Made by a program: the position numbers and the translations under genes
In this document: piece by piece, positions 7,482-64,000 of the stretch
Numbering within the stretch: the first letter of the stretch is position 1
Layout of the letters: every line of letters begins with the position of its first letter
The notes under the pieces: generated by a model
What the model saw: only the letters and a program-made list of their open reading frames with translations
Database searches by the model: none
Told to the model about the DNA's origin: nothing
DNA from: an uncultured Lentisphaerales bacterium
GTDB lineage: Bacteria; Verrucomicrobiota; Lentisphaeria; JABSQK01; UBA12247
DNA: 64,000 nucleotides
Reading direction: 5' to 3'
Assembly: GCA_943788985.1 (NCBI GenBank)
Contig: CALSSJ010000023.1
Span: 110,984-174,983 of the forward strand

Positions 7482-7492
7482 CCTAGGCCAAC

Positions 7493-9986: not shown

Positions 9987-9991
9987 GCCCG

Positions 9992-11011: not shown

Positions 11012-11504
11012 AGTCAACGTCCAGCTTGTAGCAAAGGGAAATAAGCCTCGAAAACTATACCTGCAAGATCGAGAGTTGCGATGTTCGCAAAGTCCATCGC
11101 CAAAGTTACAGCTTTCTCCTAGCCCTTGAGTAAATATCAGTCAATCAGTTTCAGGAGAGATCAATGCTATAACTACACATTCCCTTTGAGGATGCCCTGC
11201 TCGATTTGAAGAGCGGCTGCACGGTGATGGGGCGTTGTGAAGGGGGGAGTCGCGATGTGAGCCCGATTCACTCCGCCCCAAGATTGGGACGGTTGTGCTA
11301 TCAGCAGAAGATCAAGATCTCATGTTTGCCGCCGATGCGTGTCCGCTTGATCTAGCCGCAGAGCTCTTGATCCGGCTATGAGACCTTGAGTCGTTGTGTC
11401 ACGATGCCGGGTCGAACACCAAAACAACAACCGCATTCGCTGACAACGGGACGCGCACCGAGAAAGCCAGATCTTTTTCTGCCGCCCGCGGCAGCAGGTG
11501 CTTC

Positions 11505-12938: not shown

Positions 12939-12985
12939 AGTTTTGTGTAGCAGAAAGCGCTGGCTTCGGGAGCCCAAGCGCGATG

Positions 12986-13032
12986 TAAAAACACCAACGA
13001 GCACCAATCCTCGCTGGGCGAAGATTGGTGCT
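12986..13032 (-). terminator. Probable intrinsic terminator after the giant gene
   Basis: On the minus strand AGCACCAATCTTCGC-CCA-GCGAGGATTGGTGCT forms a 15-bp stem with one G-U pair, followed by CGTTGGTGTTTTT. It lies about 30 bp past the stop at 13063. Confidence 0.6.
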
Positions 13033-13062
13033 GTTAGCGTTCAGCTCGAAGCTGGGTCGCAA

Positions 13063-16000
13063 CTACTCGAAGTGAATCACACGTTCCTGGTCGCTGTTGA
13101 CCCAGTAGCCCTTCCCGGCCTTGAGCGGCAGCGGATCCGTCAGGTCGAGCGGGCGATAGCTCCCACGCGAGTACTCAGACACCTTACTAGGATCAATCCC
13201 GTCAGGCACTGCCATATCTCGCGTCGGGCCAATCAAGTTCCAGCCTTCCTTGAGCACGATCGTCAGCGGTGCATGATAGCCACCGACCACGATTGTAGCC
13301 GCGATGTCACGTGGGTTAAGGACCCAATAGCCCTCGCCAGCACGAATCTCGGTCGCAGCGATATAGCTGCCGTTGAGGAAGGTCCAGGCGGCGCCACTGA
13401 TAATGCGCCCGGTATTGTTGGCGAAGACCAGGTCTGGATCTGGGTCGTTAGGCGTGATTGGGAAGGAGATCAGGTTCCAGCCCGCATCCAGCGTCAGGCT
13501 AACGGTCCGGCTGCTCTGCGCAATCATCACCCGGAAGACGCGTGTCGTCCGCTCGGTATTCCCCGAGATATCGATGCCGACACGTCGCTCAGCCAACATA
13601 TCCAGCTCCGTACCAGGGATTGGTGCGAAGTCGCTGTCTGGGTCTACTTCTACCCAAGTCAGCGGCAAGTCAGACCGTGGCAGCAGGATTGGGTCCCACT
13701 CGATGCGCACTTCTGTAGGCTGATCCCCAAAGTCAAGGTAGAGATACCAGGTCGCTGCATCGCCAAACGGACGCATGTCAAGGGACAGCGCGGAGTGCCC
13801 TTCGGTGAAGCCTGCAGAGAAGAAGCTTCCGGATGGCACACTGGTGCCGTCCGGTAGTGGGGTCGGTCCGTTGACGTTGCCGAAGAAGGCGGGAATGTTC
13901 AGCGAGGTGGGCAGATCCACATCAAGGTTTTCATCCCAGCCATGGCTTGCGCCAGCCAGCCAGCCAATCCCGACTGTCTGCGTCGGCGCTTCAGAGCCAT
14001 CCCCAAAACGCTTGTCGACGCGCAGGGTCGCAAGCCAGGCCTGCTGCTCAATCTCGACTTCAACACTGAGCGGACTGTCCGCACTTACTTCACCAGCCGG
14101 ATTCCGTGCGAACACAGAGACCGCCCATTCCTGGCCAGCCTGCGTAAAGCGGTGGTCCAGGACACGATCCTCTGTGACCATGACCTGCACGCCGTCCACG
14201 TACCAGCGGTAGAAGAGCTGATGACCGGACAGCACCGTTGCTGGGTCTACGTCGGCGAAGAGATCGTCGGTGACCTGTGCGTTCGTGGGGCGCAGCACAG
14301 GCTGCGCTGGCGAGCTCACGAAGACCCCTGGTACCGGGTTGGCCAAAACCAGGATGCCGTACTCAGAAGCGAGCGTACCAAACTGATGATGCGGGGCAAC
14401 ACGGATGTAGTAGGTGCCTGGGTCCACGACCACTTTGAAGCGGGCAGCCAGATTGAATTCCGGATGCGCGAACGAACGATAGTCATCATTGAAAATGATC
14501 GCACGCTCGAAATCGCCTTCGCTGTATAGCCACATGCGCGTATCAACGCCAAGATCCAGGCGCGTTCCAGTATCTCGGGCCGGATTGCGAATCCGCTGCT
14601 CGATCTCGTCCACGGTACGACCGGTAGCGACTTCGACCTCAGAAGTTTGCAGAACTGTAAACTTCATCCAGTCCTCGTCTTCCAAGAAGAACGAGTGGGC
14701 CTGCCCTTCGAACGTACCTTCCAGCGAAAGAGAATTGCCCTCTTCCTCGGTATTTTCGGTGTCTGAACCGGAATTGTTGTTGCTTTCGTTGGTGTTACCG
14801 GACTCCTCGACGGTGCTGAACCCACCCGACTGATCGCCGCTGTTCTCGTCACCGCCACCGCCGCCGCCGCCGCTACCATTCTCTTGGTCCGTGGAGCTGT
14901 TGAACACATCAAAGCCGTTGACCAAGATCCGACGCGCTTCCTGCGGTGTATCATTGGGCTCGTAGGTCTCGGCATCGATGACCAAGGAACTCGTTCCTTC
15001 TCCGCCACCTCCTCCGCCACCACCTTCGTCATCCTCGTTGGAACCGGGCAAGCCGAAGCCTGGGAAGACGGTGACTGTTTGGGACCGCGCTGGCTCGCTG
15101 CGGTTGCCGAACGTATCCACGGCCTGCACTTCGCAGTAGACCAGAACGCCTTCTAGACGATGATTCTCAGTCGCCAACATGGTGCTGATGATATTGCTGT
15201 CGATCGCAAACTCAACCTGAGCCTGGCCTGCGGTCAGGATGATACTGCCTTCAAGAATATCGCCATCGTCCGGCGCAAGTACGTCGGTACCAGTACCACT
15301 GAGCAAGTCGTCAAGTTCAGTGCCTGTCACGCTCGTGTCGACGAAGCCTGGGAAGCCGATCTCTTTCCGTCCGCCAGTTTCGATCACACCTTCGGTGGTT
15401 GTGCGCGAGCGGCGTTCCAGCTGTTGGTAGGTATTGGTCACACGGTTGAAACCGTACCACTCGAAGAAGTATGACACCACGTCCCCATCGGGATCAACGG
15501 CAGGCAGGGTGAGAACACAACGAATGTCGTCGTCTTCAGCACGAGGCTGAGCCGGCTCGATCGCAATCGCAGGCGGCTCTGGCCGGCTGTTAGTGCCAAC
15601 CCCGCCGCCGTGGACAAAGCTGTTGCTGTAGCTAGGAGCGCTGCGACGCCCGGTGGCGGTGTTGTTTCCGTCTACCTCATCGGTGACGTAAGCCTCCAGT
15701 TTGACCACATCACCGACCCGCAGCTGCGCGTGACCATATGACAGGTCGACCAGCATTAGCGACCAATCCGTGATGGCAATGCCCTGGTTCTTGATCCAGC
15801 GCGTGAAGACATGGACTTGATCGCCGTCGGCGTCTGTAGGTTCGGTCGTCAGCGTGCCGATGTAATGCTCAGCGCGCTCATCCTCGTCCAGATCGGCCTG
15901 GGAGACCACGTACTCGGCTACGGTCGGCGAGCTTTGAGCGGCGTCTACAGTAACTGCTTCACTCCATACCCAAGTACTCGCACCACCGTCTTCATCCACG

Positions 16001-19000
16001 GCACGTACAGAGACGCGGTAGCTGCGGCTCCCGGCCTGTACGGTCCAATGACGTGCGGTTGCATCAGCAATGGGCTCCATGCAGGTCGTGTCGACACAAC
16101 CTGCATCGTCGATGTACCACTGATACTCATAGCTGAACATGTCACCATTCGGATCAAAGGCACCACGCGGGTGCGCGGTCAGCACGCTGTCCACACCAGG
16201 CGACTGCGGGTCAATGTCGACGATTAAGTTCATGACATTCGGCTCATCATTGGCTTGTACCAAGGTAGCCCGGGCATTGGTAGCTGTGGTAAGTTGCAAG
16301 GCATGTACCCAGCGGTCTGTATCGACCAGCGACTGCGACAGCAGGCGCTCGTAAGGCAGCCAGTCGGCATGCCAGACGAAGTCCTGAATGGTTGGTGTCA
16401 CAGGGTTGACAACCCAGTTGCGACCGGAGGTCGGATCAATGTCCACCTTGTAGGCAGCCTCATCGCTGCGATAGATCGCACCGATGTAGGTGGTAGCCAC
16501 AGCGTCTTCCGCGGCCTGGTCAGCGACCGTCAGGACCATTGGACCATCGTCGAACTTCAGGTACAAGCCCAGATTCAGCGGAGTTGCCCAGTCATTCACG
16601 CCTGGGAAGAAGGCATCCTGCAGGGTGACGTAGTCATCCCACATGTCCTCGGTTGCTTCCCAAGTCGCGTTGCTGTTGGTATCGCCAAAGTAGAGGGCTG
16701 CGAGGCTGCCCGGGGCATCCTGAATCAACGTGCCATCATCGCTGGCGACTGTGAAGTCAGGAATAAGGACAACCGCTGCATTCTCGTCCACAGTCACTGT
16801 AGGATCATGAGAGCCCGGCAGGATCACAGTATCGATCACGGTTTCCTCAGTCTCCCCTTCGACGAGAACCGGTTCATCGTAGACGTTGTTACCATTCTGA
16901 TCGATCCAGAGCCCCTCATGTGCGTCGCGAGTCTGGTTCAAGTTTGCGTCAAAGTAGCGTGCCTGAGCCAGCAGTAGTCCCTGTGTACCGGCAGTAGTTT
17001 CCCACAGACCGTCGGTCGACAGCTGCGAGTCAATGCCTGGATCGTAGACGGATTCCTGTGGTACCAGCCCAGAACGGAAGGTATCGAGGTTGCCGAGCAC
17101 AATCTCAACATCGCGGTTATAGGCTTCCTTGATTTCTGCCTCGGTGCGGACGTCACCCCAAATACGCACTTCGTCGAGGTCACCCACGAAGTTGTGTGTC
17201 GAGATGCTGTCGCTTACGTCGTCTACATCTACCGATGCACCGATGCGGATCACGGCAAGCTTGTCGAGATCCTTCGGCTTGGCGCTACCGAAAGCATTGA
17301 TGTTGCGAGCTACTTCCACCCCGTTCACGTAAAGGAACATGGAGTTATTGGCAGCATTGAAGGTACCCAGAATGTGCGTCCAGACGAAGTTTTCGTCAGC
17401 GGATTGGATCGGCGTGCCAGCCTTGACCTTGCGGACAACGGTCGGCGTACTCCAGAGCACGTAAGGCCGCTCATCGGTATCGATACCGAGCTCATAGCTG
17501 ATCACGTCAGCGTCTCCATTCAGGCTCAGGGAGCGTTGAATAATGACCATTCGGCGGTCAGGATCGGCGTGAAGGGTCAGATCCAGCTGTGGACGAACCC
17601 AGGCTTCCACCGTCCAGCTCTCATAGCCGAGGCGCTGTGCGTCCGGATCGTCTTCCACGGCCACATTGGCGTCGGACTGGCCGATGTTCACCAGCGGCAC
17701 GTCGAGGAAGGTCGCACCATCCAGGTTCAAGACCAGGTTCTGCACCCCCTTGTACTTGAGGCTATTCAGCGGATCGCTAAGGAAGCCCAGTTCGGCGTCG
17801 TTGTGCTCGACGATGTCGGCGATGCCGTCATCATCAGTATCAGGCAATTGACGGTCGGTGTTCTGCTGAATTTCGTCGGTGTCAGCCACGTCATCATTAT
17901 CAGTATCGACATCGAAGTTGTCAGCAACCCATGGGTCGGTCCCAGCGAGGTACTCGAGACGGTTGGTACGGCCATCCTCGTCAGGGTCACCGTCAGTTCC
18001 GTGGATGCCGGTGGCATCGAGCGGGTCCAGCGAGACTGCGCTGGAGTTGGTTGAGATAACCTCCCAGCCGTCCGGCAGCAAGTCGCCATCGGTGTCAGGA
18101 TTGCGCGGCTCTGTGCCACGATTCTGCTCACCTGCGTTGTCCAGCGCGTCGTTGTCGGTGTCTTCCTCGCCGTCCAACGTACCGTCACCGTCGGTGTCGT
18201 TGTTGAGCGGATCGAAGGAGTTTGCAACTTCCCAGCCGTCCTTGAGCGAGTCACCATCGGTATCAGCAACAGTTGGCTTGGTGCCAAGCTGCAGTTCGCG
18301 AATGTTGGTCAGGTCGTCTGCATCCGGGTCGCCGTCTGCGCCATTGTCGCCGCTGGCGTCGTTCGGATCCAGGTCATTCTCGACCTCGGCCTTGTCGCCC
18401 ATGGCGTCACCATCGCTGTCAGCGCTGGTTGGGTCAGTAGCATCACCCCAGAGACTGCGGTCAGATGAGCTGATCAGGATGGCTCCAGTGGAGCCCGCGA
18501 AGGCTGCCTGATTGTCAGCACCGAGGAACTCAGAGATGTTGTTCAGACCGTCACCGTCGGCGTCATCAAAGGCATCGTCGGCTTTTGGCAGCAGGCTGAA
18601 AAGGACTTCAAATCCGTCATCCATACCATCTGCATCGGTGTCACGATGCTGTGGATTAGTATCCGCGTCGTATTCCTGCAGGTTCAGCAGGCCATCGTTG
18701 TCCGGATCACCAGTTGCCCCGTTGTCGCCAGTGGCGTCGAATGGATCCAGGCCGTTGGCGTTCTCCCAGAAGTCGGGCATGCCATCATTATCGCTGTCCA
18801 TGTCTGAAAGGTCAGGCACTACCGTATCGAAGGCATAGTCGCCACGGCCCAAAGCGGCCACGGTGAAGTCATTCGGAATCGCGTGATCCTCGGCACCAAA
18901 CTTGTGCTCGTAGGGCGGGTTGCTCGTCCCGTACTCGCCGTCATCCATGCGGAAGTAGCTGCTCAAGCCGTCTTCAGTCGCGGCCAACGTGGAGTCCTTA

Positions 19001-22000
19001 AGCCCATTGATCTGCGCCGTGCTGCGGGCTACGCTCCAAACTCGTACTTCGTCGATCAGACCTTCGAAGCCGCCAGAAGCTGCACCAATGTACAGGTCAC
19101 CTGGCTTCTGATAAGGCTTGAAGCCTGTGAAGTTCACGGACTGCGAGCGACCGTTCACGTAGAGGATTAGACGCCCGGCATCCGGGTCAAGGGTACCAGC
19201 GATATGGGTCCATTCGCCCAGCTCTGCGAGGTCGGTTCCCACAATTTCCTGGTTTTCACCGAGGTTATCTGGCGTGTAGGAGACGTATGGGAAGCCTGCA
19301 CGCAGACCCAGCTCGTAGTTCACAGCGTCAGCGACCAGCTGTACGCGGCTGTTGCTCGGCGCTTCGTTGGCCAGTGTTTCACCGCCAGCCAAGGTAAGGA
19401 CAGTTGGTGTAACTTCCGCAATCTCATAGCTGCCGTTGTTGGACAGCGAGCCTTCCACGGTAATGGTCATACCAGCCGCCATTCCGGCAGTGATGAAGTC
19501 ACCCCCGGCTGTGGTGATCGTGTCTGCGAGCGGATCGTTATTGGCAAACGTCAGGTCGCGACGATCGACACGACCGCTGACCTTGCGAACCACAACGCCG
19601 TCGGCGTTGGCTGCATCTGGGTAGACCCACGCTTCAACCGTGAAGGAATCCAGCTCATGGCGTGCCTGGCCAATGGCCTGCATGTAGCCACCAGCACCAA
19701 GACGCAAGCTGCGACGAACCAGCGGATCGAGTGAGGATGTCGGGCTATCGCCCTGAGCAATCTCGGTCTCGTCATCCAGGCCATCGTCATCGCTGTCTAC
19801 CAGCAGTGGATCACTGCCATAGGTGTTGAGCTCTGCCCCGTCCAACAGGGAGTCGCCATCGGTGTCTGCGACCGTCGGGATGGTGCCGTCGGTATTCTCG
19901 TAGCGACGATCAGTGATTGGACCAGTGATGTTGATCGTGGTGACGTAGTGATCCCCGGTCGTTGGCGTGTCATTCGGCGTCGCAACTGGCTCGACAAAGC
20001 TCCAAGTGCCGTCAAACTTTGCCAGCATGCCAATCTGGCCCTGCCATTCATTCCCGATATTGATCTCGGTCCCGCTCGCGGATGCTTCCACGTAATACCA
20101 GACGCCGATTTGCGGATTGGTTGGGCGAATCGCATCTGCGACCACTTCGTCGTAGACCCATTCGGAGCTGACGTCGTCGTAGACACCGATACCGATCTGC
20201 GGGATGGTGCTGTCGCGGCCGAGGTACTCTTCCATGTTGGTCAGGCCATCACGGTCGATGTCTTCGGCGCCGTCACGAATACCGTCGTTATCAGTATCTG
20301 CATTGTTCGGGTTGAGGTCGACATCAATCTGGCCGATCTGCCCCAAGCCGAAGATCCGGTTCTCACTGTAAAGCATTTCGAACCAGTTCGGTAAACCGTC
20401 ACCGTCGTTATCCAGCTGACCTTCACCGGCGAACGTGTTACCGACAACGCGGGCAGCGTAGCGCCAGTTATAGCCGTCGACGGAGGAAACGTTCAGCCAA
20501 TCTCGCGGATGAGCGAAGTCCTCGACGAACTGTCCACCATCGTTGAAGCTGTAAAACAGGACCGGTTCGATCGTGTCGACCACGATGGTCTCGACCTGTG
20601 TGCCAGTGACGGCTCCGGCGTCGTCCACAATCGTTGTGCTGATTGTATCGAAAATCTCGAAGGCACCGAAGGAGTTTCCTTCACGAGCAAGCAGGTAGAT
20701 CTCCTGCAACTGCGCGGCAGTCAGGATGTCTTCCCAGATCGTGATGTCATCCATCTGGCCGCTGTAGTGCGTGCTGCCAACTGCGGACTGCGTCACACCG
20801 TTGTAGTCCACACCCACGTAGAGGTGGCCGGTCTCGATGACCGGTGTGGAGATCGGCAGGCGCGAGTTGGTGCGCTGGTCGAACGTGTCAGGCCCAGTCG
20901 GGACAAACAGGTCCAACTGCATGTTGTTGTTCGCGATATCCAAGGTAGCTGCGATCATCGCCCACTCGCCGGCACCAATCGTGTCGCGGCTTTCCAGAGT
21001 CACCAGACGGTTGATCAGCTGATTATGATACTCGAAGATCACCGTGCCATCCGGTAGCAAGCGAAGTGCGTAGTTCAGCACGTCGTTGTTGTCGCCACGG
21101 GCGTGCTTCTCCAAGATCGTGTGGCTGCCGTTGAGGTCCGGCTTGACCCACAGCGTAATCATGAACGTCTCGAGGCCAATGGTCTCGTTGTCGTAGGCCA
21201 CGAGGTAGTCATCACCATCGAAGGTACCAACCCGACGAACGCCTGGATCCAGGGAGTTTGCAGCGTCACTGGTCAGCGTGGTCGAGATCGCATTGACCTC
21301 GTCGTTGTCGCCGATGCCATCATCGTCGGTGTCCTTCAACAACGGATGCAAGCCCAGAACCTGTTCTTCCAAGTTCGTCAGGCCATCGCCCAATTGCTGC
21401 TCTTCGCCTGTGTCGTAGACACCATTCGCGATCGAATCCGTCCAGACAGCCAAGCCATTGTTCGCCACCAAGAAGCCCGCGTTCGGCGAACCGGCAGTGC
21501 CAGCGCGGATGATCGCCAAGTCGCGATCCTCTTCACGATCAGGAGTGCCGTTACCGTCACTATCGAAACGCTTCGGATCGAGCTCTGCGAGATACTCGTA
21601 GAAGTCGTTCAGGCTGTCGGAGTCGAAGTCCGTGTAGCCCTGCGGGCCATTCTCATCGAGTCCAACAGACGTCAGATTGCCGAAGTATGCCAGCTCCCAC
21701 GAATCAGGAATTTCGTCGTCGTCGGTGTCGACAGGTACCGCTGGTGTCGGAACAGCTTCCGCTGGCTCCGTCATCGTCGCGCCGTTCGCGAGAACTGCCG
21801 CGTTGGCCCACTCGCTCAGCCAATCGGCCTGGGCAACAGCATCTGCAGCAGTCTCACCACCGTCGTCGAACCGATAGTAGGCAACCAAGCCAGCTTCCGT
21901 GCCGCTAAGAGTCTCGACCATCTGTGCCTGAATCGTGGTCTGATTGCGCACGATAGACCAGATACGAACTTCGTCGATGAAGCCGATGAAGCCTTCACCC

Positions 22001-25000
22001 ATCCGCGTGAAGACTGGTCCCGGACCGTTGAGTACGGGCTTCTTCAGGGTGTTGGTTGTGGTGGAGTCGACGCCATTCAGAATCAAGCTCACGACATTCT
22101 CGGCAGGATCGAAGGTTGCCGCGACGTGCGTCCACTCATCCAGCTGGGCAGTCGCAGTCACAACGGACATCACAGTCACAGGACCGGAGCCATCGCGAGC
22201 ATCGAAGGTGATGGAAAGCTGACCACCTGCATTCACTGACAAGCGATAGGAGTTACCGCCGACGGTGCGCTGCAGGACTGTACCATCGCTGGCTGCTGTT
22301 GGGTAGATCCAGGCTTCAATCGTCCAAGCCGGCAAGGCCAAGCGGCTAGTCAGTGGCAGTGTAGCATAGGATGAGCCGTCGACAGACAGCGCAAGCTCTT
22401 GGACTGGGCTGAACTGGTTGCGTGGGTCGTTGCCGCCAAGTTCCTCGTCACCATCGGAGACGCCGTCATCATCAGTGTCAGCGACCAAAGGCAGGGTCGC
22501 GAGAATGAGTTCGTCGCCGTTTGCGAGTCCGTCACTGTCCGCGTCCGCGTCGAGATCGAGGATGCCATCGACATTTGCATCCGGCAGGGAGACGTGTCCT
22601 GCCCAACTGTAGCTGGGCAGCAGAGGCTGGTTATCGGCTGGATCGTCGTCAGTCTGCGCTGACTCGTCACCACTTTCACGCTCACCGTCAGGCCGGGTCG
22701 CTGTGCTCGGATCATTGGCGACCTGAACGACACCATACCAGTCAGGCACCTGGTCAAGGTCGGCATCATCGAAGACGGTGCGCAGGGCGACCGGCATCCG
22801 GCGTCCACCAAAGCTCAGTGCTGCGGTGTCAATTTCGACAACAGTACCGGTGATGGTATAGCTCTGGCCGATTCTGTCGGCGCGCAAGGGCCTCCGGAAA
22901 TCCTCAATGGTGCTTCCGCCGTCATCGAAGCGGTAATAGGCTTGTAGGTCTTCGTCGCCTTCGAGTACCAGGTGATCGCGCATTGCCTCAACCTGGCCAG
23001 CGGTTCGGGCGATATTCCAGACACGCACCTCGTCTAGCAGGCCGCTGCTGAAATTGCTGGAAGCGTTGCCATTACCACCGAGGTAGACCATCGCATCTTC
23101 GTCAACGGGGACTTCGATTGGGAGGGCATTGCTTTGCGCCTTCCAGAGCAATCCGTCCACATAGAGTGCGATGGTCTGCAGATCACTATCGTAGGCCACA
23201 GCCACGTGATGCCACTCACCAGTCCCGAAGGCGGTAAAATAGTCATCACCTATTCTCACGGTCTGGTTGGTGGTTGTGACGTACTGAGCGTAGGGCTGAC
23301 CAGCGTTCACGCCAATCTCGAGTACCACGCTACCAGCGACCTGCGCCCCCAGTACCACGCCAGTTGTATCACCATCAAGCTGAATCCAGTACTCAGCGGT
23401 CCAGCTGTCAGCCAGTGAGTCGAAGCGCTCTGCATGCGGCAGAGTCGTACCAGTGAAACTGATCGAGCTCAGATCGAGAGCCCGCGCTACGTAGCCACTG
23501 CGGTTTGCCGCGCTTCTCGGGACCTGGCTCATTGAATGTGCAGGGCTCGTAAATTGAGCGGCTTCTACGTCATCGTTCACGCCGTCGTCATCGGTATCTT
23601 CGTTTCGAGGATCCGAGTGGACCTGCTGTTCTTGGAAGTTGGTCAGCGTATCGCCATCCGCATTCTCCAAGTCGTCATCAAGGCCATCACCATCGGTGTC
23701 TTCATTGGTTGGGCTGGTGCCAGCGAGATACTCGTAGAAGTTGGTCAAGCCATCTTCGTCCTCGTCGCCGTCGGCTTCGCCACTCAGGTCACCGAAGACC
23801 TCACGCTCCCACCAGTCTGGCAGACCGTCGTCGTCTTCGTCGGCACGCACAGATGGCGTGCCTGCGGAGAACGCGGCGCCGGTTGCCATGCGGGCTGCAT
23901 GCATCCAGTTGGTCTCCCAGTCGCGAGCGACCGAGTAGTCTTCTACTGTCGTGCCACCATCATTGAAGGAGAAGAGAGCGACCAAGTCGGACTCGTCGCC
24001 GGTCAAGGCTGTGTCGTAGCTACTTTCTACAGCAGCGCTCCAGATCGCGACATCGTCGATCGCCCCCTTGAAGTTGGCGCCGAGTTCGACGTAGGTCTCA
24101 CCGGGGCCACTCGTTGGGGGCAGGTTCACGGCAGTCGTGCTCTCGTCGCTGATTTCCTCGCCACTTTCGTAGTCGTGTACAGTCAGCGTCAGCATTTGAC
24201 CGCTGGCGCTGTAGGAACCGGAGATATGGCTCCAGGTCCCAAGCGCAACCGGATCGTCGGACAACAGCTCGATCGTCTGGATGTAGGACTGGTTGGCCTG
24301 GAAGGCGCGGCGATAGCGATAGGCAACGTAGGCATGCAGGCTGCCATTGACATCACGCAGGCCTATCTCGTAGTTGGTGCCCTCGGCGAGGCCGTTGGTG
24401 ACCTGGACCGGGAAGCTACGCGAGAGGATCACACCATCCCGAAGTTCGGTGGGCTGGACCCAGGCCTCAACCGTCCACTCAGTAAGAGCGTGACGATCCT
24501 GTGGCTGGAGCCAAAGCTTGCCAGAACCATTGAAGCTCATCACGAAGTCGCGAACGCGCTTGGTGGAATCAGCAGGGTCGGACTCGTTGCCGGCATCTGC
24601 CTGATTCTGTGCTTCTTCGTAGTCGTTGCCGGGCTCGTAGCCGTCCCACCAGTTGATCTGGCCGTCTGCCACGCCGGCAGGACCATTGTCGTCGATCTGG
24701 CTGATGACGCCATCGAAGACACCGTTCTCGTCAGCGACATCGGTGAAGTCGTCATCGGTGTCGATCAGCAGCGGATGCGTGCCGCGGAGCTGCTCAATTA
24801 GGTTAACCAAGCCATCCCAGTCAGAATCCTCGTGGGTATCCGGAGTGCCGTTCAGGTTGGTGTCGCCTTCGAGCGGATCCGTGCCAGCCAGGAACTCGTA
24901 GAGGTCGTTCAGACCGTCGGCGTCCGTATCGGTGTAGCCATCGACGTAGGCGTCTTCATTGAACGTGCCAGAGGTTGGTGCAGCTTCGGCAGTGGTGAGG

Positions 25001-28000
25001 TCTGCGAAGTTCTGTAGCTCCCACGCATCAGCAATGCGATCGTCATCGGAGTCTTCGGTGCCGAAGACCGGTACTGGTGCAGCGACCGGTTCTTCGACCA
25101 CGACTGCCAGGCCGTCACGGTCAAGGGCGTAGGCCCAATCGGAAGGCTGGGTGAAATCTTCGATGGTTGCGCCACCATCGTCGAAACGGAAGTAGACGAG
25201 CAAACCAGCGGCATCACCAGGTACGGGACCGTGGCGATTGGCTGCGATTTCGGCTGCCGTGCGCTGTGGGGACCAGACGCGGACTTCGTCCACGAGGTGG
25301 CCAACATCAGCGAAGCCGCTGTCGAGTACCAGTGTGCCGTTGTGCCCTGGGCCAGTGACGGCAGCTTGCGCCCCGTCGACCTGGGTGCCATTCAGATACA
25401 AGCGCAGCGTTGCGGAGTCCGCATCCCAGCTGGCAGCCAAGTGATTCCAACGGCCAGCAGCAAGCGTCGTCTCTAACGTGGCGGTTACGCCGAGTACAGA
25501 GGCAACCGGGCTCCCGTTGTCGAGACCAAAGGAGAACAGGTCATCCTGCGGTCCGAGCAAGGTCAGGATGTCACCGCTTGCGGAATCGTTGGCAGCGTAG
25601 AACCATGCTTCAACGGTCCAGCTGTCGAGGGCGAAACGACTACCTTCGGGCTGCGGAACAACCAAACCAGCGGACTGCAGTGCATAAACCCGCGAAACTG
25701 CTGGATCGAGGCTGACGAGAGGATTGATCTCGTTGCCATCGAGCAGACCGTTGTCATCGGTATCCGGATTGTTCGGATGGGTGCCACGCAGTTGCTCGTT
25801 GAGATTGGACAGGTTGTCGTTGTCTAGATCGCGACGATCATCACGGATGCCGTCGTTGTAGGTGATCTGGTCGGTCGGATCGGTTCCAGCGAGCCACTCG
25901 TAGTAGTCGCTGAGGCTATCGCCGTCGACATCCCCGGAGCCATCGCGGCCCAAGTTGCCGAAGAAGTGGAGTTCCCACCAGTCCGCCATGCCGTCGCCAT
26001 CGCTGTCAAGGTTGACTGCGACTGGATTGTCACCAGAGACGCCATCGTTCGAGCCAGCGAAGGTTGCTGCGTGATGCCAGCCAGACAACCAGTCATTCAC
26101 AGGCATTGCGAAGTCTTGGGCCGTAGTTCCGCTGTCATCGAAGCGATACAGGGCGACGAGAGCATCCGACCCGGTGTGGAATCCCTGACCGGTCAAGTCG
26201 CTTGTGGAGGCGCTACTCCAGATTGCGAGATCGTCCAGCTCGGCCGCCAAGCCTTCACCGACTGCCATGCTGCTCCAGCCAATCACGTCCGCGGCGGGGG
26301 CAATCCCGCTGGTGACGGTGTTTTGCAGCAAGCCATTGACCGTGATACTCAACTCGCCGCTCTCGGCGTCGTACTGAGCTGCTACGTGACTCCAACGTTC
26401 CGCAAGAATCGACGCCCCGGAGGTGGCGATCACGCTGGCGGAGCCGTGGTCTTCATAGCTGCCAGTAAAGCTGGCGTATGGCTGCAGGCTGCTGTTGATG
26501 CCCAGCTCATAGTTGACGGAACGAGCGTCGTCATCGTCATGCGCATCGGCGATGCGGCGCGATACGATGATACCACCATCGGTATCGCTGGTGCTCAGCT
26601 TGATCCAGGTCTCCACGGTCCAGCTTTCAGCAAGGTTGAAGCGGCTCTGGTTTGGTACTGCTAGAGTGGCGCCTTCGGTCGGCAAGGACAGGACGCGAGG
26701 CACATACGGTGACAGCGGCTGGATCGGACTGCTGGTCACAGCATTGGCGAACAGTTCTGCATTGTCTTCAGCGCCGTCGTCATCCGTATCAGCAGCGGCA
26801 TTCCACGGATCTGTGCTCTGGGCAGCCTCTTCGAGGTTGCTCAGGTCATCACTGTCAGGGTTACGCTGCGCATCGGAGGTGCCGTTGGTGGTCGCGTCGA
26901 TCGGGCTGGTACCGGAGCGCCATTCAGCAACTTCGTCCAGGCCGTCGCCATCTTCGTCGTTCTCTTCTGCTGCGGTCGGATTCAGGCCGTAAGCGTGTTC
27001 GAACCAAGTTGGCAGGTTGTCGCCATCGAGGTCGCCGTGAGTCGGGGCAAAGCTGCTGTTGACGACCGAGGCACCTGTCAGCGTGGCTGCGTGGCGGGTA
27101 TGACGCCCGCGCAGTGCCAAGGAGAAGTCCTCGGATTCGGTCAGGTCCTGCACGAAGGCAGAGCCAGCGATGGCTTCGTCAGCATTGAAGTAGGCGATCA
27201 GCCCGGTTGCTTCCACAGTCGCCAGCGCTTCGCCGAGGTTCAGCGTGGCACCCGTGAGAATGCGGCCGTCCAGGCTTGCCAGCGGCGTCGCCGTTTCGAG
27301 CAGGCGTGTCTTGATCTCGAGGAAGGTACGCTTTGGCTGCGCCGAGAGCAGCACAGCAGCAGCACCCGCGACATGTGGTGATGCCATCGAAGTGCCCTGC
27401 AGATTGTGGTAGCCACCGCCAAGGCGAGTGCTGTAGATCTCGACACCAGGAGCAGCGATGTCTACGGTGGTGATGCCATAGTTGCTGAAGCCTGCCATCT
27501 GGCCGTCACGGCTGATCGCTGCGACAGAGATGATGTTCTCTAGGTCGTAGCTTGCCGGGTAGGCTGGATTGGAGTCGTTGTTGCCGGCGTCGTTGCCAGC
27601 AGCAGCGACAAAGAGCTGGCCAACGGCCTGGGCGCGGGCGATCGAGTCGTAAAGGGCTTGCGAGAAACCGCCGCCGCCCCAGCTGTTGTTGGTGAGCGTG
27701 GCGCCCATCTGAACAGCATAGTCGATGGCCGCGATGGCATCTGCTGTGGTCCCAGAGCCATTGTCACCGAGGAAGCGGAGCGCCATAATGCGCACGTTCC
27801 AGGCTACCCCGACGACACCGACATTGTTGTCGCCCACGGCGCCAACGGTGCCAGAGACATGCGTCCCGTGCCCGTCCACATCCATCGGGTCCCCGTCGTC
27901 CTGGGCGAAGTCGTACCCGTAGACATCGTCGATGAAGCCATTGCCATCGTCGTCGATCCCGTTATCCGGGGTTTCGCCTTCGTTCTTCCACATGTTTGCG

Positions 28001-45900: not shown

Positions 45901-48900
45901 AAACTCGTGCAAAGCCAGCAGTTGATCACCATCGTCATCTGTGGCTGCGCCTAACCCGGTTGGACTCCCAGAATAGAGGTCCTCGTACCAGTCGGAGATT
46001 CCGTCGCCATCGGCGTCATCCGCTGCGATCGACCACGTGACGGCGTTTGCAAGACCGCCAGAGACATGGAGAGGTGCATTCGCTTCGATCACGTCTCCGC
46101 TCTCAACCGCTACGACATAATCGTAGGGGCTGTAGGCAACAGACTCGCCAGCGACCGTTGGGCTTGGGCGCTGATTTGTAGCCGAACCGGGTACGTGGTA
46201 CAGCTGCCAAGCAAAGTCCTCCACCGTGACACCGCCGTCATCGAACCGGTAGTAGGCGACCAAGTCCTGCTGATTGGCCTGAACATAGCCCAAGCGACCA
46301 GCGTCCAGTTCTTCTTGTGAGCGAGCAACAGCCCAGACACGTACCTCATCAAGGCGGGCATCAAGGGCATCGCTACCCATGCTAGCGCCAAACTCGGCAA
46401 AGGCATCGGGGGCGGTGAAGGGTGCAACACCGGCGAGCAGAGGTGCGTTCGTATTTTCAATTTCTGTCGCGTAGTCGTAGACAGTCACGCCATTGACGGT
46501 GAGCGTCAGCGTCTCGGCATCAGCATCCCAGGCACCGGCCACATGCGACCACGTGCCAGCCACCAAAGGCAGCTGGCTGGTGACGCGGTAGGAGATGAAT
46601 ACCGGCGGATTGCTGTTGAACCAAACGTATGGCTTGCCAGCGGCCAGGCCCAACTCATACTGAACCGCACCATTAATCGTGCTTTGCAGAATGCTGCCGT
46701 CTTCCGTACCCGTGTCGGGTTGGACCCAGGCTTCGAGCGTCCAGCTTCCGGCCAACCGGTCGAACCGATCCGCCAGGGGCAGGGTAACCTCACCGGAAAC
46801 GCTGACATCTAGCGCCCGCCCACGGACGTTGGTACCCGACATGCTGAAGCCGGGGTGGGTAAGATCGTCATCCGTTTCGTTCGCGTCAAATTCTTGGCCG
46901 TCCGGAATGCCGTCATCGTCAGTGTCTGCCAGATCGGTACGCGTCCCAAGGGCGGTTTCCTCGACCTGAGTCAGGCCATCACTATCTTGGTCATTCCGCA
47001 GGGCATCCTCGTCGGAAAGAACCGTGCGCCAGGTACCAGCAACGTGTGGAATTGCTGCGTGCCGCCAGCCTTCGAGGTAGTCAATGGCCTGAGCGCTGTC
47101 TTCAGCTGTCTCACCGCCATCACTCAGTCGGTAGAAACTCGACGAGGCGCCGCCTCCGCCGACCTGGGCCGCGATACGCGCGCTCAGGGTCTCGAAGATT
47201 GCGGAGTAGTCGTCGCTGTTGATGAGTACTTCAAGGCCACCGGTGGCGGCCACCAGTTCGGTCACGTCTGGGTTGGTGGATGGGTTGTGGATTGCGTGCA
47301 GAACCACTCTGTCAGCCTTCATCCGCGCAATCACATCAGCGCGGGATTGAAGCGCGCCGCGGTCGCCGTCTTCCGTGTCCTTAATCGGCGCATCGGTCAC
47401 CAGAATCAGAACCGGCGTGGCATTGGAGCGAAAGCCATTGGTGGTAAACTGATCACCATCCAACGCTACCGTGATGCCACCGAGGCCGTCTTCCGCCCAG
47501 TCGCCACCGCCCTGCAGGGGAAGCGGAGTCAACCAGCCGTCAAGAAATTCTTGGGCCGTGCCGTAGAGGCCTGCACCATCGGGGGCCGTGTCCCTGAACC
47601 CACCACCGGTCAAGGTGTCGCTGTAGCGGATGCCACCGATGAGTACGTCCAAATTGCGCGCTTCCAATTCGGTGACAAATGCTGCCACGTTGGTCTTGAC
47701 CCGGGTGATCGGCCCGCCCATACTGCCGGAAACATCAATCACAAAGACTAGGTCAACCGCGCTGGAGGAGCGCTGCTGGCCTGAATCATACCACGTGTAA
47801 ATCGCGGTATCTTCCATCGCACCCGCGTTAATACGCAACTCACTCATGCGGCCAGCGAACGCTTCGCCTGCGTGGGTTTCAACCGGACCAGCACCGGAGG
47901 TAGCCGGTATATCGGCGGCAACCCCAAGCTCGATGGAGTCAACCATGCGCCCGTTGCGGTACTGCGTCATTAGGCCGGTCTCGCTGTTGAACTGTAGGGC
48001 CACGTGCGTCCACTGATTGAGCGGCAGGGCCTGGGTGTCGGTGGTCCCGTATTCGGCGTTGCTTTCTTCGCCATGCACCAGCGCATATGGAATATCGGCA
48101 GCGTCCACAGCCAATTGGAAGCTGTGACGTCCTGCTCCTACGCTGCGGCGTACAATCGTGGCCGGGCCAGATGCGGTCGGATAGACCCAAACACCAACCG
48201 CGACAGAGTCCGTCACATGGTTTAGGCTGCTGGGAATCTCCAGATAATCACCGGCAGCCAGCTCGAGAACGCCGTTCGCAGGGCGAACCGGGCTGTCCGA
48301 ACTGAGCGGATTGGAGTGGCCAATGACTTCGTTGGAATCGGTCACTTCGTCATCATCCGCATCGCTGGTCCATGGCAAGGTTGCAAAGCGCTGCTTGTCG
48401 AAGTTTGTCATGCCGTCGGCAGCTGCAGCCAACTCGTCTCCGTCAGCCGTACCATCGCCATTTGTGTCGGCTTCCAACGGATTGGTGCCTGCGTAGAATT
48501 CCCACAGGTTTGTGAGCGTGTCGCCGTCGGGATCTTCCTGCCCATCGGAGATCTGGTTGTCATCCGTATCGGCGACAGTTGGATCAAGTCCGAGCAGATG
48601 CTCAAAGTAGTCTGGGAGCAGATCTTGATCGCTGTCATCCACAGAGCCGGCGGCCGGCACAAATGGTGCGAACTCAGTAGAGGTCATGGCACCGGCCGTG
48701 ACCGGGAGAGCCAGATCGTCGTTCGCCACGTTGGCGAAGTCGCTGGCAGCAGTGCCGCCATCATCGAAGCGGTAGTTAAGCAGCAATCCGCTGGTACCAG
48801 CCGCCTGCAGTAGGCCAGCCGCGTCAGCCAGCTCAGCACGGAGGCGTGCCACATTCCAAACCCGAATCTCGTCGACAAAACCAGAGGTCAGCTGATGACC

Positions 48901-51900
48901 AATGCGGAGAGTCCCTAGGCCACTGACTGGTGATACTGTGGCAAAGCCAAAGTCATCACCAATGCGGCTCACAACCTGCGCGTCGACATACAGGTGAAGC
49001 TCCTGTGCGGGGCCATTCCAGGTGGCGACAACTGTGTGCCAGGCGTCGTCACCGATCTGCTGCTCACAGGCCAGTGCCACCATGGTGCCACGCTGCAGGT
49101 CCGTAAAGCGGATCCGTGGGCGACCGTTGATGACTTCGATCGCAAACTGCGTACCATCCACACTGTTATATGAGACCAGCTCGCCAGTTGCTTGCGTGTC
49201 GAGCTTAGCCGACACTTCGACGGTCCAAGCATCACCAAGGGTTGCCAGGCTGGCGTGGCCGTTGAACGCGACCTCTCCAGCTGCCAGACTCAAGCTGCGC
49301 TGTGGCAGTGCGGCATTGGCAGTTCCAACAGCCTGATGCATCGCATGCAAGGGGCTGGTAGGCGGCACACTGTTGACTTCGGTGCCGTCATTCACGCCGT
49401 CGTCGTCGGTATCCGCAACATGCGGCAACGTCGCGTGAATCTCCTCATCGCCGTTCGCCAACCCGTCGTTGTCAAAGTCTTCCAGGGCGTCCCGCAGACC
49501 GTCAAAATTACTGTCGCGCTCATTCGGGTTGTTTCCGGTCAGGAACTCGCCCAGGTTGGTGAGGCCGTCATTGTCAGCGTCGCCGGCGGCATCGTCAACC
49601 AGTGGGTTCAGGCCGTTATCGGTTTCCCAGCTGTCGGGCATCCCGTCACCGTCAGAATCGGGCGCGCGAACGGTCTCGTCGAGTACGATTGCTGCACCAT
49701 TGCGCAGAATACCAGCAGCGCTCCAGTTAGTTAGCCAGTCCTGAGCAACTGTGAAGTCCTCAACGCTGGCTTCCGCGAGGGAGCTGCCATCGTCAGCACG
49801 CATGGACAGCACCAGGCCAGCCGAGCTGTCCGCCACGTCGACGGCGGCAAGCTGGTCGATTGGACGAGCGACATTCCAGATGCGGACATCGTCAATCTGA
49901 CCCGCAAACATCTGCGCACCAGCACCACTAGGAATACCACCAATGGTCACCTGGCCAGCGAGCCCTTGGCTCAGATCCGGACCAGCCGTCACATTGGTCC
50001 GCTCAGCGACAAGCAGACCGTTCACATAGAGAGTCATGGACTCGTTGGCCGGGTCAATCACGGCGGACAAATGCGACCACTGATTGGCGGTCACCAGGCC
50101 ATCGGTCAAAGCGTGCCAGGTGTGGAAAATTCCCAGTGCGGGAATATCCAGCTGGGTGCCGCCTACCTTGTATTCTTTGAGCGTACCGTTTGGCTGCTGA
50201 ACCTGGTATTGAGCGTACGGGGCCAGACTGCTGGACAACGGCTCGAGGCCAAACTCGAAGTTGCTAATCCCATTGCCAATAAGATTGCGGGCCAGAATGG
50301 CACCGTCAAGTTCAACCCCAGGCTTGATCCACATCTCAATGGTCCAAGTGGATAGCAAGTGCCGTGGCTGACGCGGAATAGCGAGATAGTCGTCGCTTCC
50401 GTCGAACCACAGCGAACGGCTGATAGCTGGGCTCAGTGAGTCAGCCGGATTGGTGGCTGCGCCGCCTGGATCAGCTGTGGTGATCACACCATAGATATCG
50501 TTGACGCCAAAGATTTCCTCGGCATCGCTGAGACCATCATCATCCGTATCGATTGATGCGGGTGAGGTTCCTGCAGTTTGCTCTTCCAGAACGGTCAGTC
50601 CATCACTGTCGATATCGCGATCACCATCGTCAAGACCAAGGTTCTCGGTGCGGACACGAGTTGGATCCAAGGCCGCCAGATATTCGTAAAGGTTGGTGAC
50701 TGAATCGCCATCCTGGTCGCCTGAACCGTCTTGGCTGAGATCGCCCAAAAAGGCGAGTTCCCACCAGTCAGGGAGCTGATCGTTATCGGTGTCAAAGGTG
50801 ATTGCGTCTGCAATTGGGGCGCCTGGCTCATCAATCAGGCCACCTTCCCGAATGGGGGACGAAGGCCAGCCAGTAGCCCACTCGCTGGCAGCGGAAGCCG
50901 CGAAGTTCTGAATCAGGAGACCTTCGTCGTCAAAACGATAGTAGGCTGCCAGGCCCGTGGTGGGCACAACAGGGTAGTCAACGGAGGTGCCAGCAAACGG
51001 ATCCACGCTAACTGCTTGCGTCCAGATTCGGACATCGTCCACGCGACCGTTGAGGTCGCCGCCAATGACCTGGGTAATCTGCAGGCTTGCGTCACGCGAT
51101 GGCGGAACGCTCATGGTCTCGCGCCACTCCTCGGTGCCATTGACGTACAGAATCATCGCGTTCAATGCGGGATCGTACACCGCAGCGACATGGAACCAAG
51201 TTTCTGTGATCAGCTGGCGAAAGGCCCAGGTCGTCTGGAGGACGCCCTCTTCGGTGACATACTCAGCGTACAGACGCGAGCTACGAATGCCCATTGCGTA
51301 ATGCGGGGCACCGCCGGAGCTCCGTGCGAACAGCGTCGCGTCCGTTTCACCGGCGTCTAAGCGTACCCACATTTCAATCGACCAGCCATTGCTTGGTTCA
51401 AACGCACTGCTTGGCTCGATGATGACTTGTTGGCCATCGGTCAGAGCGAGTGCGCGATTCACGTGCGGGTCGAGTGAGTTGGTCGGGTTCGGATCATTGC
51501 CGTCATCCAGACCGTCTTCGTCTGTATCGGCGGCATACCCCAGCGTGCCAGCGGTCTGCTCTTCGAGCACGGTCAGCCCATCACTGTCGGGATCTTCGTC
51601 GCCGTCAGCCGTCCCATTGCCGTCGGTATCTGTGAGAGTTGGATTCAGGCCGCTCTGATATTCGTAGAGGGCGGTAATTCCGTCGTTGTCTTCATCGCTA
51701 GTCGAGATGGTGCTGTCTGGGTAGAAGGCCTCGAACCAGTCTGGCAGACCGTTGCCATCGCTGTCGAGCACATGCTCGCCACCAAGAATGCCGTTGCCAA
51801 GTTCATGGTTCGTAAGGTTCATCCCCTGGCCATGAAGCGGAGCAGCTGAGCCCACGTGAGTGACACCCGCCGTGGCAAAGACGTAGTCTAGCGGTGAGTA

Positions 51901-54900: not shown

Positions 54901-57900
54901 GGCGTAGAACTCAATGGTCCAGTCTCCGCCACCAGCGTTGTGTGCCGCGCCATTAGGCAGAATCACTGGTCCGGAAACACTCAGGTCCAGGCTACGCTCA
55001 ACCTGAGCACGCCCAGCATCCAAGGCATCAGCCAATTGGCTGGAGGCGTAGCGCGGATTCGTGCCAGCGTTGATTTCTGTAGAATCGTCGATGCCGTCGT
55101 CATCCGTGTCAGCCAGATCCGGCCGTGTCCCGTGCAACTGCTCTTCTTTGTTGAGCAGGGCGTCACCGTCGGAGTTCAGGCGACCATCCAAAATAGCGGG
55201 GTTAATGGACGCATTATTGTTTGGATTGGTGCCAGCCCAAAATTCGTAGAGATTATTAAGGTCATCCGCATCAGGGTCTGCTGTCGCATCGGCCGCATCC
55301 GCTGGATCAAGTCCGTTGGCCACTTCCCACCAATTGGGCATGCCGTCACCATCGGTATCGCTGTCGGTAAGCTCGCTGCCAGCCTCATTGGCAAAGTTTG
55401 CAGCACCAACCAGAGTTCCTGCGGTTTGCCAGCCGTTGAACCAAGGCGTGCTATCGCTCAGCAGGCCGTTCTGGGCGCTGATGCCACCATCGTTAAAGCT
55501 GAAGTTTGCGAGCAAGGCCGGATCGGCCTCGTCAACCGTTGCAGCGCCAGCCTGTGCCATTTCGGCATCGCGAACACTCGTCCAGACGCGGAGGTCATCC
55601 ATCTGGCCGGTGACGCCTTCACCGGCGATCACAGTCACAGCACCGGGGGCTTCGGTCAGTAATGCAGCGGCTGTGGTCGTGGCAACCAAGTCACCGTTGA
55701 TGTACAGATTCAGGGTGCCGGTAGCCTCATCGTACGTGGCGCCAAGGTGCGACCAAGCGTGTGGTGCCAGAGCACGACGACCAGGAACGGGCAGAACCAC
55801 TGCGCTACCATCCAACTGGGTGACGGAGACAACTGGGGACCAGCCATTCAAAGACAACGCGACGTTCGCACGCCCAGCGCCGAGGCGACGGGCAAAAATG
55901 ATGCCGTTGACAGCGTCAGGTCGGACCATTGCTTCCACCGTGAAGCTGCTCAGAGCGGTGACAGTCGCGGGTGCAATCGCCAAGTAGCCGGTGGCGGTCG
56001 GTAAAGCGAGTGCGCGAGCATGTTGCGGTGTGGATGCGTCGGTGGCAGAGGTGCCAGCGGCGACTTCGACATCATCATTGTAGCCGTCGTCGTCGGTATC
56101 GATCGCGTCTGGATGGGTGCCCAGGGTCTGTTCCTCAAGATTGGTCAGCGCATCTGTGTCTGCGCTTTCATCGGCATCTGAGAGGCCATCGTAATCAGTA
56201 TCGGCCCGATTGGGATCGGTTCCAGCGAGATATTCATACCAGTTATTCAGACCATCGGAGTCTGCGTCCGTCAGCGCATCCGCGGCGCTGGTCCAATCCA
56301 GGCCGTGCTGGCGTTCCCAGAGATCGGGCATTCCATCGCCGTCATTATCTTGCAACAGCACACCAGTGACATCAGCAAAGGCGACACTACCATGAAGGGT
56401 CGCTGCATTCTCCCAGCCATTCAACCAGTCGCGAGCCACGGTGAAATCTTCGGCTTGGCCTTGCTGTGAGCCAGCTTCGCCATTCACAATATCTCCAGAT
56501 CCCCAAACGCCGTCGGCCCCTGGATTCTGCGAAGTGCCGTCATCAGCGCGCAGATAGGCAACCAAGCCGCGGGCTGGTGCAACCAAGGCATTGCCAACAT
56601 TGAGACGACCGCCAGTGACCATGCGACCATCCAAGGCAGAAACGGCATCGGTGCTGTCCAGCAGCGTCGCCTTCACATCTTCCCAAGTCGCATTTGGATT
56701 TCCGGCGTGAATCAGGGCTGCGGCTCCGGCAACATGCGGTGTCGCCATTGAGGTACCGCTCAGCGTGCCGTAGGTGTTACCCGCCTGCGTACTGAGAATG
56801 GCCACACCCGGCGCAGCAAGATCAACCGTCGTCAGGCCCCAGTTACTAAAGCCTGCAAGGGCATCGCTGGAATTGGTCGCAGCCACTGAAATAATGTTGT
56901 CCAGATCATAGGAGGCTGGATAGGCTGGATTGGCGTCATTATCACTGCCGTCGTTGCCTGCGGCAGCGACAAACAACTGGCCGGCATCGCCAGCGGCTGC
57001 GATCGCATCGACCATAGCCTGCGAGAAGCCACCACCACCCCAGCTGTTACACGTGAGTGTCGCCCCCTGGGCCGTCGCATAGTTTATCGCGGAGATGGCG
57101 TCGCTGAGCAAACCACTGCCATTGGCACCGAGAAAGCGCAGGGCCATCAGCTGGACATTCCAGCTCACGCCAGTTACGCCGACGCCATTGTCACCAACGG
57201 CACCGACCGTACCAGCGACATGGGTCCCGTGATGGACGCCTACGTCTTCGGATACGGGATCATTGTCATTGTCGACCCAATCCCAACCATAAACGTCGTC
57301 TACCAGGCCGTTGCCATCATCGTCTATCCCATTTCCAGGTGTTTCCCCTGGGTTGGTCCACATGTTTGCGGCCAGGTCTTCATGATTATAGTCCACGCCA
57401 GTGTCAATAATGCCGACAATCACGTCGCGTGAGCCGGTGTTTTGGTCCCAGATCTCGGGCCCGTCAATATCGGCATCATCAATGCCACCGGTCTGGCCCG
57501 TATTATGCAGGCCCCAGAGCTCGTCGAAGCGTGGGTCGTTCGGGAATGCAGATGCCGTGAGGATGTAGTTCGGCTCGACATAGCGGACGCCCGGCGTGCC
57601 AGCCAGAGCCGTCATCTTGGCTGCCATATCGTCGCCGTTGGCGACCTCCACCAAGTTGGCGTTAATCGACTCGTGGCGTGAGAGTTTGGTCAGACCAGCG
57701 CTCGCGAGGATCGCTTCACGGGTCTGGGCATCCATGCCGCTGGCGAAGCCGATGTGCAGTTGCTGGGCCTCGTGTGGATGGGCCAGTTGCTGCTCAACGC
57801 TCGCCGCCGGCACTGAGACCTGATCGTCAAGACCGAATTGAAAACCGTTCTGGATTTGCGCTGCGCTAAGGGCAGTACCCCAGATGCGAACGTCGTCAAT

Positions 57901-64000: not shown

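Follow-up and report, generated by a model that had tools for sequence, protein, structure and literature searches.

Three open reading frames (ORFs) in the draft genome of an uncultured Lentisphaerales bacterium (GCA_943788985.1, here G000; 4.58 Mb in 48 contigs, 58% G+C, with a completeness estimate of 83.6%) are the subject of this study; they lie on the minus strand of a 64,000-nucleotide stretch (the window), positions 110984-174983 of contig C23 (CALSSJ010000023.1), and are very probably pieces of one giant gene. The window sequence is held by marine metagenomes, and the best protein matches are labelled Lentisphaerae, Kiritimatiellia and Verrucomicrobia.

Three reading frames at the end of a contig

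As listed, the ORFs run from 33910 to 63999 (ORF3; 10,029 aa, still open at the window end), from 29919 to 33932 and from 13063 to 29943; read from stop to stop, the second extends to 33974 (ORF2; 1,351 aa) and the last to 29979 (ORF1; 5,638 aa). A preliminary description of this DNA, made from the letters alone, had reported the three minus-strand ORFs and quoted the letters at the two sites where they break, and the ORF list and the sequence agree with it on both counts. It had also proposed that ORF1 and ORF3 share a frame, the two indels cancelling each other; indeed, the codon tops at 29979 and 63999 are both 0 modulo 3, and that of ORF2, at 33974, is 2 modulo 3. The frame stays open as far as base 64000, where contig C23 ends, so that the N-terminus was rightly placed outside the window. 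Joined with an X at each break, the ORFs give 16,980 residues, the length announced, and these 16,980 positions serve below as joined coordinates.

Contigs from natural populations carry neither indel

Sequence matching the stretch 29000-35000 was present in 20 of the 23 public runs listed, 17 of which hold at least half of its sampled words (10 studies). Three DNA runs, each from a different study (X1, X2 and X7), and one RNA run (X16) supplied contigs that were placed on 28000-36000. Each of the two break sites is crossed by one contig in each of X1, X2 and X7, and all of these leave out one letter at 33971 (depth of the variant over total depth, 14.6/14.6, 9.69/9.69 and 8.15/8.15, respectively) and two letters at 29976 (13.4/13.4, 7.5/7.5 and 6.94/6.94). 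Thus, the window reads as three ORFs because the assembly carries one extra base at 33971 and two at 29976. When both changes were applied by script, one open frame of 16,977 codons resulted, from the window end to the stop at 13063, with the repaired readings ...TPATILGRRDAAL... at 33971 and ...AVLTKAHNGATEY... at 29976; either change alone left a longest frame of 6,969 or 11,359 codons. The repair first suggested, removal of one G and addition of another, had the right effect on the frame but not the right bases, and for the check proposed with it, accurate reads over both sites, the contigs of all three DNA runs speak in its favour, showing neither indel, at full depth.

Among the other indels listed are the compensating pairs 33694/33699 and 33740/33743, and an indel patch at 30828-30838 that is present in one of two X7 contigs. 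The two compensating pairs belong to a divergent patch of 175 bases (33677-33851) in which the window differs from all three DNA runs at about 40 positions. An intragenic chimera was ruled out as its origin, there being no paralogous source in G000; the patch represents a hypervariable stretch or else the allele of a different strain.

Unbroken homologues in related genomes

The first 400 residues of ORF2 were used to search 31 genomes, G000 and 30 relatives, and were matched in 22. Long unbroken frames were found in several relatives: 16,552 codons in G014, 13,069 in G002, at least 12,587 in G012, 8,469 in G017, 7,477 in G029 and about 6,300 in each of G011, G015 and G019; the homologue in G010 is also an open frame. 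The G014 ORF is complete (2070..51725 of the 65,950-bp contig C162), as is that of G002, within the 112,852-bp contig C3; that of G012 (C10) runs off its contig. Giant genes of this sort are common among the relatives.

ORF2 residues 6-1163 align with G014 residues 12099-13304 (42% identity) and ORF1 residues 4-1731 with G014 residues 13357-15209 (37% identity). Since the two alignments follow each other in G014, ORF2 and ORF1 are collinear with one continuous stretch of the G014 protein. Moreover, when an X stood for each break, BLASTP ran in one alignment through junction 1, at 42.8% identity over 680 columns in G010 and 43.4% over 694 columns in G014, and likewise through junction 2 in G014 (35.7% over 403 columns); the homologues are therefore unsplit at these two points. 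A split at the same places in relatives, which the preliminary description had named as a test of its proposal, was thus not seen in the complete G014 ORF.

The giants of G014, G002 and G012, genomes of the same order as G000, share with the window gene the LamG arrays, the TSP3 linkers, a C-terminal GWNL...GYW domain and the collinearity with ORF2 and ORF1 at 37-42% identity. They differ from it in the number of S8 domains (one in G014, one in G012 and none in G002, against three), in the number of LamG modules (15-30, against 35) and in their N-terminal regions, which are unlike. The G002 and G014 giants start with signal-peptide-like segments, as judged by eye. Protein searches brought up no near-identical longer forms (2,366-5,000 aa with ORF2, 3,100-9,867 aa with ORF1 and 1,438-4,105 aa with an 821-aa ORF of contig C16, see below), in a setting that could show no orthologue above 10,000 aa.

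Domain organization of the joined product

A hidden Markov model (HMM) built from the protein's own LamG modules gave 36 matches, two of which are halves of one module; the resulting 35 modules, one of them cut by the contig end, equal the earlier manual count of about 35. Laminin_G_3 (PF13385), a concanavalin-like lectin domain, scores 139-452 bits per piece, against a cut-off of 27.6. One module spans junction 2 (Table 1), and thus ORF2 and ORF1 are not independent genes. The preliminary description had held that translation starts of their own in ORF2 and the downstream ORF would speak against a single gene; as it turned out, ORF2 and ORF1 begin inside or just after LamG. Of the 35 segments between or after LamG modules, 18 match TSP3_bac (PF18884) at E<=0.01, several above the 25-bit cut-off, and two hold a Glucodextran_B/Big_7-like domain; the chain has about 89 regular-expression matches to predicted calcium-binding motifs of the D.D.DG..D..E type.

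Three pro-subtilase units are distributed along the chain. The Peptidase_S8 matches (PF00082) score 195.9, 187.3 and 210.1 bits (cut-off 21.8) and the prodomains (PF22148, of the N-terminal inhibitor/chaperone kind) 42.2, 43.9 and 29.6 bits (cut-off 21), with a gap of about 45 residues between the end of each prodomain match and the S8 match. In all three units the catalytic motifs with Asp, His and Ser are intact, and the proteases are apparently active. The whole chain is very acidic and nearly cysteine-free (11.4% Asp, 0.7% Lys and 10 Cys). Tiles of 1,000 residues are 27-69% identical to one another at offsets of about 4,600, 5,190 and 9,800-9,950 residues, which defines three super-modules; to judge by the sequence, these internal repeats are old. 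No HemolysinCabind or RTX family appeared in the Pfam or NCBIfam output on any piece, and the protein does not fall in the class of RTX adhesins with type I secretion. With LamG, TSP3, VWA and three S8 units, the domain content agrees with the combination of adhesion and proteolysis first proposed.

Table 1. Position of the features discussed (window coordinates, unless a contig is given)
Feature	Position	Strand	Description
Giant gene, part held by the window	13063..64000	-	Three ORFs as deposited; one 16,977-codon frame with the two population variants; 5' end cut by the contig end
Frameshift 1	33971..33975	-	Window +1 base relative to contigs of 3/3 DNA runs; directly after LamG (joined residues 9854-10007)
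Frameshift 2	29976..29979	-	Window +2 bases relative to contigs of 3/3 DNA runs; inside a LamG module
LamG module ending at junction 1	33979..34440	-	Joined residues 9854-10007; HMM
LamG module across junction 2	29659..30101	-	Joined residues 11301-11449; HMM
Pro-subtilase unit 1	56650..57774	-	Fervidolysin-like N-prodomain and Peptidase_S8; DTG / HGTH / GTSMATP
VWA domain	47203..47754	-	PF00092, 36.3 bits (cut-off 23.8); DxSxS motif of the metal ion-dependent adhesion site (MIDAS) type, DVSGS
Pro-subtilase unit 2	42802..43968	-	Prodomain and Peptidase_S8; DTG / HGTH / GTSMASP
Pro-subtilase unit 3	27280..28401	-	Prodomain and Peptidase_S8; DTG / HGTH / GTSMASP
C-terminal all-beta domain	13066..13512	-	Made of two half repeats (GWNLI..P ... 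G.GYWV); no match in Pfam, NCBIfam or PDB
C-terminal domain, other copies in G000	C23:14970-15494, C5:72822-73346, C18:116240-116764, others (L032-L047)		About 135-150 aa

Frameshifts in other genes of the assembly

Several ordinary genes of the same assembly are also broken. In the window, fumC (+, 4001-5429) is spread over three frames (4001-4276, 4216-5244 and 5091-5429) by two frameshifts; its pieces cover positions 2-54 and then 56-312 of Lyase_1, followed by FumaraseC_C, which has a single locus in G000, within a 112-codon frame. Next to it, a Zn_peptidase_2 gene (+, 3289-4000) is read in two frames, with model positions 2-161 and 161-215, split at about 3790, and the 3' end of murE (+, 2896-3258; the region of the AGKGHE motif) seems to run on in another frame near 3160; judged from the letters, MurE probably loses its 3' end by the same kind of shift. 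Outside the window, on C23:14970-18726, a protein that is 1,262 aa long in at least eight of the 15 listed cluster members from other assemblies (P0138) is found in two frames (98.4% and 99.3% identity). Genome-wide, there are 25 stretches of at least 1.5 kb that hold no 150-aa frame, a count too crude to give an indel rate. The assembly is thus error-prone, at least locally, and because its sole fumC and other ordinary genes are shifted as well, the giant gene, too, was very probably broken twice by errors of assembly or consensus.

The missing 5' part and contig C16

Among 22 off-running frames of at least 150 codons listed at contig ends of G000, only the one at the end of contig C16 has LamG features. 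Its last 821 codons encode a LamG tail, a Peptidase_M10 domain (135 bits, HEFGHSLGLGH), TSP3 repeats and the start of a LamG module. As to phase, the two ends are compatible, two bases being left over at the C16 end and one at the window end. A direct join of C16 to C23 would leave the LamG module without about 40 of its residues, which means that sequence is lost between the contigs or that they do not lie next to each other. The N-terminal regions of the G002 and G014 giants gave one weak match to C16 by BLAST against G000 (24.8%), and otherwise LamG repeats. Flanking genes offered no real support for the join, only gyrB being common with contig C3 of G002, in another arrangement. A search of Joint Genome Institute (JGI) metagenome contigs with the first 400 residues of the window's open frame returned distant relatives only (11 loci, best segment 54%) and no upstream extension. 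On balance, the chance that the C16 end is the 5' part of the giant gene, adjacent to C23, is about even or slightly better; if so, the gene would have roughly 20,000-21,000 codons.

Between 41 and 52.3 kb of C16 the coding frame changes repeatedly, also inside LamG at about 52.1-52.3 kb, and these changes resemble an indel-ridden patch at 3.2-5.4 kb of the window. In the region C16:40001-54547 (+; L024), its positions from about 1,300 to 14,547 show repeated domains other than LamG, TSP3, LamG and an intact-looking matrixin, with many frame changes.

A C-terminal domain without a family

No Pfam or NCBIfam family was matched in the final 1,000 or the final 1,355 residues of the giant. Read by eye, the last 1,355 residues hold what we take to be four PKD-like repeats and a glycine/acid-rich linker, and the segment before the terminal domain holds EPNDT and GTYYIRV motifs that are presumably of the pre-peptidase type. 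For the PEP-CTERM, LPXTG and type IX secretion system (T9SS) C-terminal domain tags, no matching family model was found in these 1,355 residues, and the chain ends in ...GYWVNSDQERVIHFE, which has no hydrophobic stretch.

The terminal domain itself is widespread. In G000, a single-sequence search gave 22 matches, of which 20 lie at most 80 residues from a stop and 15 at most 20, and a profile search gave 34; none of 20 aligned copies matched Pfam at E<=0.01. At least six of 16 carrier ORFs in G000 open with signal-peptide-like segments, according to a crude hydrophobicity scan read by eye. The domain occurs in 19 of the 31 genomes, with between 4 and 55 matches per genome; the families that carry it are f1, f2, f3, f5, f6, f8 and f10, and none was found in families f4, f7, f9 and f11 in the genomes searched. 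The giants of G002, G012 and G014 end with the same domain. In a search of 1.84 billion representative proteins, there were 28,186 matches at E<=0.001 and 12,030 at E<=1e-10, and in 111 of the best 150 proteins the match ends at most 20 residues from the C-terminus. Ten clusters that were inspected are called 'hypothetical protein' or are nameless, and a protein atlas returned unnamed clusters only. AlphaFold2, given a 20-row alignment, produced a confident all-beta model (pLDDT 87.9, pTM 0.78). Such a distribution is to be expected of a sorting or anchoring tag, and the domain may be one, for exported proteins.

Two further occurrences were noted. A 13,986-codon open frame in another relative ends with the same domain (G007:C4, about 93915-94391, minus strand), and C23:299-823 (-) and C27:13-402 (+) encode the same C-terminal-domain sequence on opposite strands; the ends of contigs C23 and C27 probably overlap.

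One gene, broken or whole

The proposal of the preliminary description, one giant gene hidden as three ORFs, is supported by the population contigs, by the LamG module across junction 2 and by the unsplit homologues, and we consider it very likely that positions 13063-64000 of the minus strand hold a single gene, which in the natural population has an open frame of 16,977 codons or more and which is split here by what are likely assembly errors. A number of observations weigh against this reading or the functions attached to it. The population data are assembled Logan contigs rather than raw reads, and reveal presence in a sample, not absence. At about 33.1-36 kb, each contig piece of the X1, X2 and X7 populations has 50-63 substitutions relative to the window, and these populations may represent another strain. 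The X16 contigs are near-identical to the window (of 29 placed pieces, 24 are at least 99% identical; the contigs cover parts of 28,298-36,000) but reach neither frameshift site; a match in X16 means presence in the RNA library only, and such libraries can contain DNA. The gene's own 5' end and signal peptide were found neither in the window nor by the extension searches. For the C-terminal domain, Foldseek gave no match at E<=0.001, and the best hit of VIA-align, to cupins (Z 4.1), is within noise. Finally, export, calcium-dependent folding, anchoring and self-cleavage are proposed from domain content only.

Some of these points would also fit frameshifts that are real in the assembled strain, where the giant would be a pseudogene or exist as truncated pieces while remaining intact in other strains; a surface protein that is costly to make would then be inactivated in single strains, or switched on and off between them. 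That the X16 contigs, at least 99% identical to the window, miss both sites, that the window is a distinct allele, some 50-63 substitutions per contig piece away from three intact populations, and that GTG and TTG codons follow each break are all in keeping with it. The same assembly, however, also breaks the sole fumC, the Zn peptidase gene and P0138, which points to assembly error rather than biology, and neither downstream ORF begins with a signal peptide, their starts lying in the middle of a LamG module or just after one. We therefore regard real frameshifts as unlikely. Programmed ribosomal frameshifting or transcriptional slippage could also join the three ORFs, the two shifts cancelling and leaving the outer ORFs in the same frame; yet natural populations encode the same protein with no shift, the relatives have none there, no slippery run is visible at 33971 or 29976, and other, ordinary genes of the assembly are shifted as well, which leaves this explanation a very small chance indeed. 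An equally small one is left to the idea that the ORFs are neighbouring but separate genes, paralogues of one family. LamG/S8 proteins of 3,000-8,000 aa that stand alone are frequent in bacteria of the Planctomycetes-Verrucomicrobia-Chlamydiae (PVC) group, and the giant does hold three super-modules of about 4,600-5,200 aa, but the breaks do not fall between the super-modules, one lying within a LamG module and the other at the end of one; intergenic DNA, stop-start spacing and signal peptides are all lacking at the breaks, and the homologues read through both points.

Relation to known giant proteins

Proteins of at least 10,000 aa are reported to be frequent in PVC phyla, reaching 85,804 aa in Omnitrophota (West-Roberts et al., 2023; 10.1101/2023.11.21.568195), and Lentisphaerae are named in another study among the phyla richest in proteins above 5,000 aa (PMC11573180). 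The domains that these two sources name for huge proteins include the Laminin_G_3 and Glucodextran_B types (10.1101/2023.11.21.568195; PMC11573180). Like the PVC and Omnitrophota giants, the gene described here exceeds 10,000 codons in one ORF and comes from a metagenome assembly, its length hidden by fragmentation; the largest Omnitrophota proteins are far longer. Unlike it, the giants described in those papers, as far as the text available extends, have neither this LamG/TSP3/tri-subtilase architecture nor the C-terminal domain, and in the main text of the preprint the strings 'Lentisphaer', 'LamG' and 'laminin' occur 0 times each (10.1101/2023.11.21.568195). A literature search, supplements aside, found no description of LamG/S8 giants in Lentisphaerae or Kiritimatiellia, of this architecture or of the C-terminal domain. 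The gene had been ranked among those for the larger bacterial proteins; large it is, but not exceptional for its lineage, with 12,587-16,552 codons in relatives and proteins above 10,000 aa known in PVC phyla.

Close counterparts are proteins of 3,000-8,000 aa annotated as 'S8 family serine peptidase' or 'LamG-like jellyroll fold domain-containing protein' in metagenome-assembled genomes of Lentisphaerae, Kiritimatiellia and Verrucomicrobia, which combine the same domains (fervidolysin-like prodomain, S8, Laminin_G_3 and TSP3_bac); they are 33-45% identical over most of a 1,500-residue query, 205 of them at E<=1e-100. Each corresponds approximately to one super-module, and the window gene looks like three such units in one frame. 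To our knowledge, none of these PVC proteins has been characterised experimentally. As in fervidolysin-type and other secreted pro-subtilases (PF22148 with PF00082), the prodomain stands directly before the Asp/His/Ser catalytic domain; unlike in those enzymes, the pro-enzyme units lie thousands of residues inside the chain, three times over, and their autoprocessing is presumed. RTX adhesins such as LapA, SiiE and the ice-binding adhesin of Marinomonas are giant calcium-binding repeat adhesins of Gram-negative bacteria. By analogy, the present protein may likewise be a very long, acidic, cysteine-poor extracellular chain of beta-sandwiches stiffened by calcium; it differs from them in having no HemolysinCabind, in the apparent N-terminal Sec-type signals of its relatives in place of a type I C-terminal signal, and in modules of the LamG rather than the Ig-like type.

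A possible course from export to cleavage

Since the complete relatives have signal-like N-termini, the chain would be exported by the Sec pathway. Its TSP3-rich linkers could then fold outside the cytoplasm upon binding calcium, and the C-terminal domain may hold or sort the chain. The LamG arrays and the VWA domain would form an extended, multivalent binder of glycans or particles, with local proteolysis by the three subtilases, and by the matrixin too if C16 belongs to the gene. Classical subtilases (family S8) normally remove their own prodomain by autocleavage, and the three places where prodomain and S8 meet, at about residues 2165, 6770 and 11955 of the joined chain, are therefore candidate self-cleavage sites. 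Cleavage there would yield protease-headed pieces of about 4,600, 5,200 and 5,000 residues and an N-terminal part, up to four in all. It is conceivable, if rather doubtful, that the protein is a self-processing polyprotein cut into protease-headed LamG arrays, with the C-terminal domain as the tag of a hitherto undescribed sorting or anchoring system of Lentisphaeria and other lineages.

Current knowledge is not overturned by this gene, as giants of such size have already been reported for the group. It illustrates, however, that two small assembly errors can keep a protein of about 17,000 residues, possibly about 20,000, out of sight when genes are called on draft genomes from metagenomes, and that contigs of public runs together with related genomes suffice to repair such a reading. 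The giant surface proteins of marine PVC bacteria have been little studied, and the gene provides an example mapped in detail, one in which three apparently active proteases are built into a lectin-like chain predicted to bind calcium, and whose unannotated C-terminal domain family may mark an exported 'cargo set' of these bacteria.

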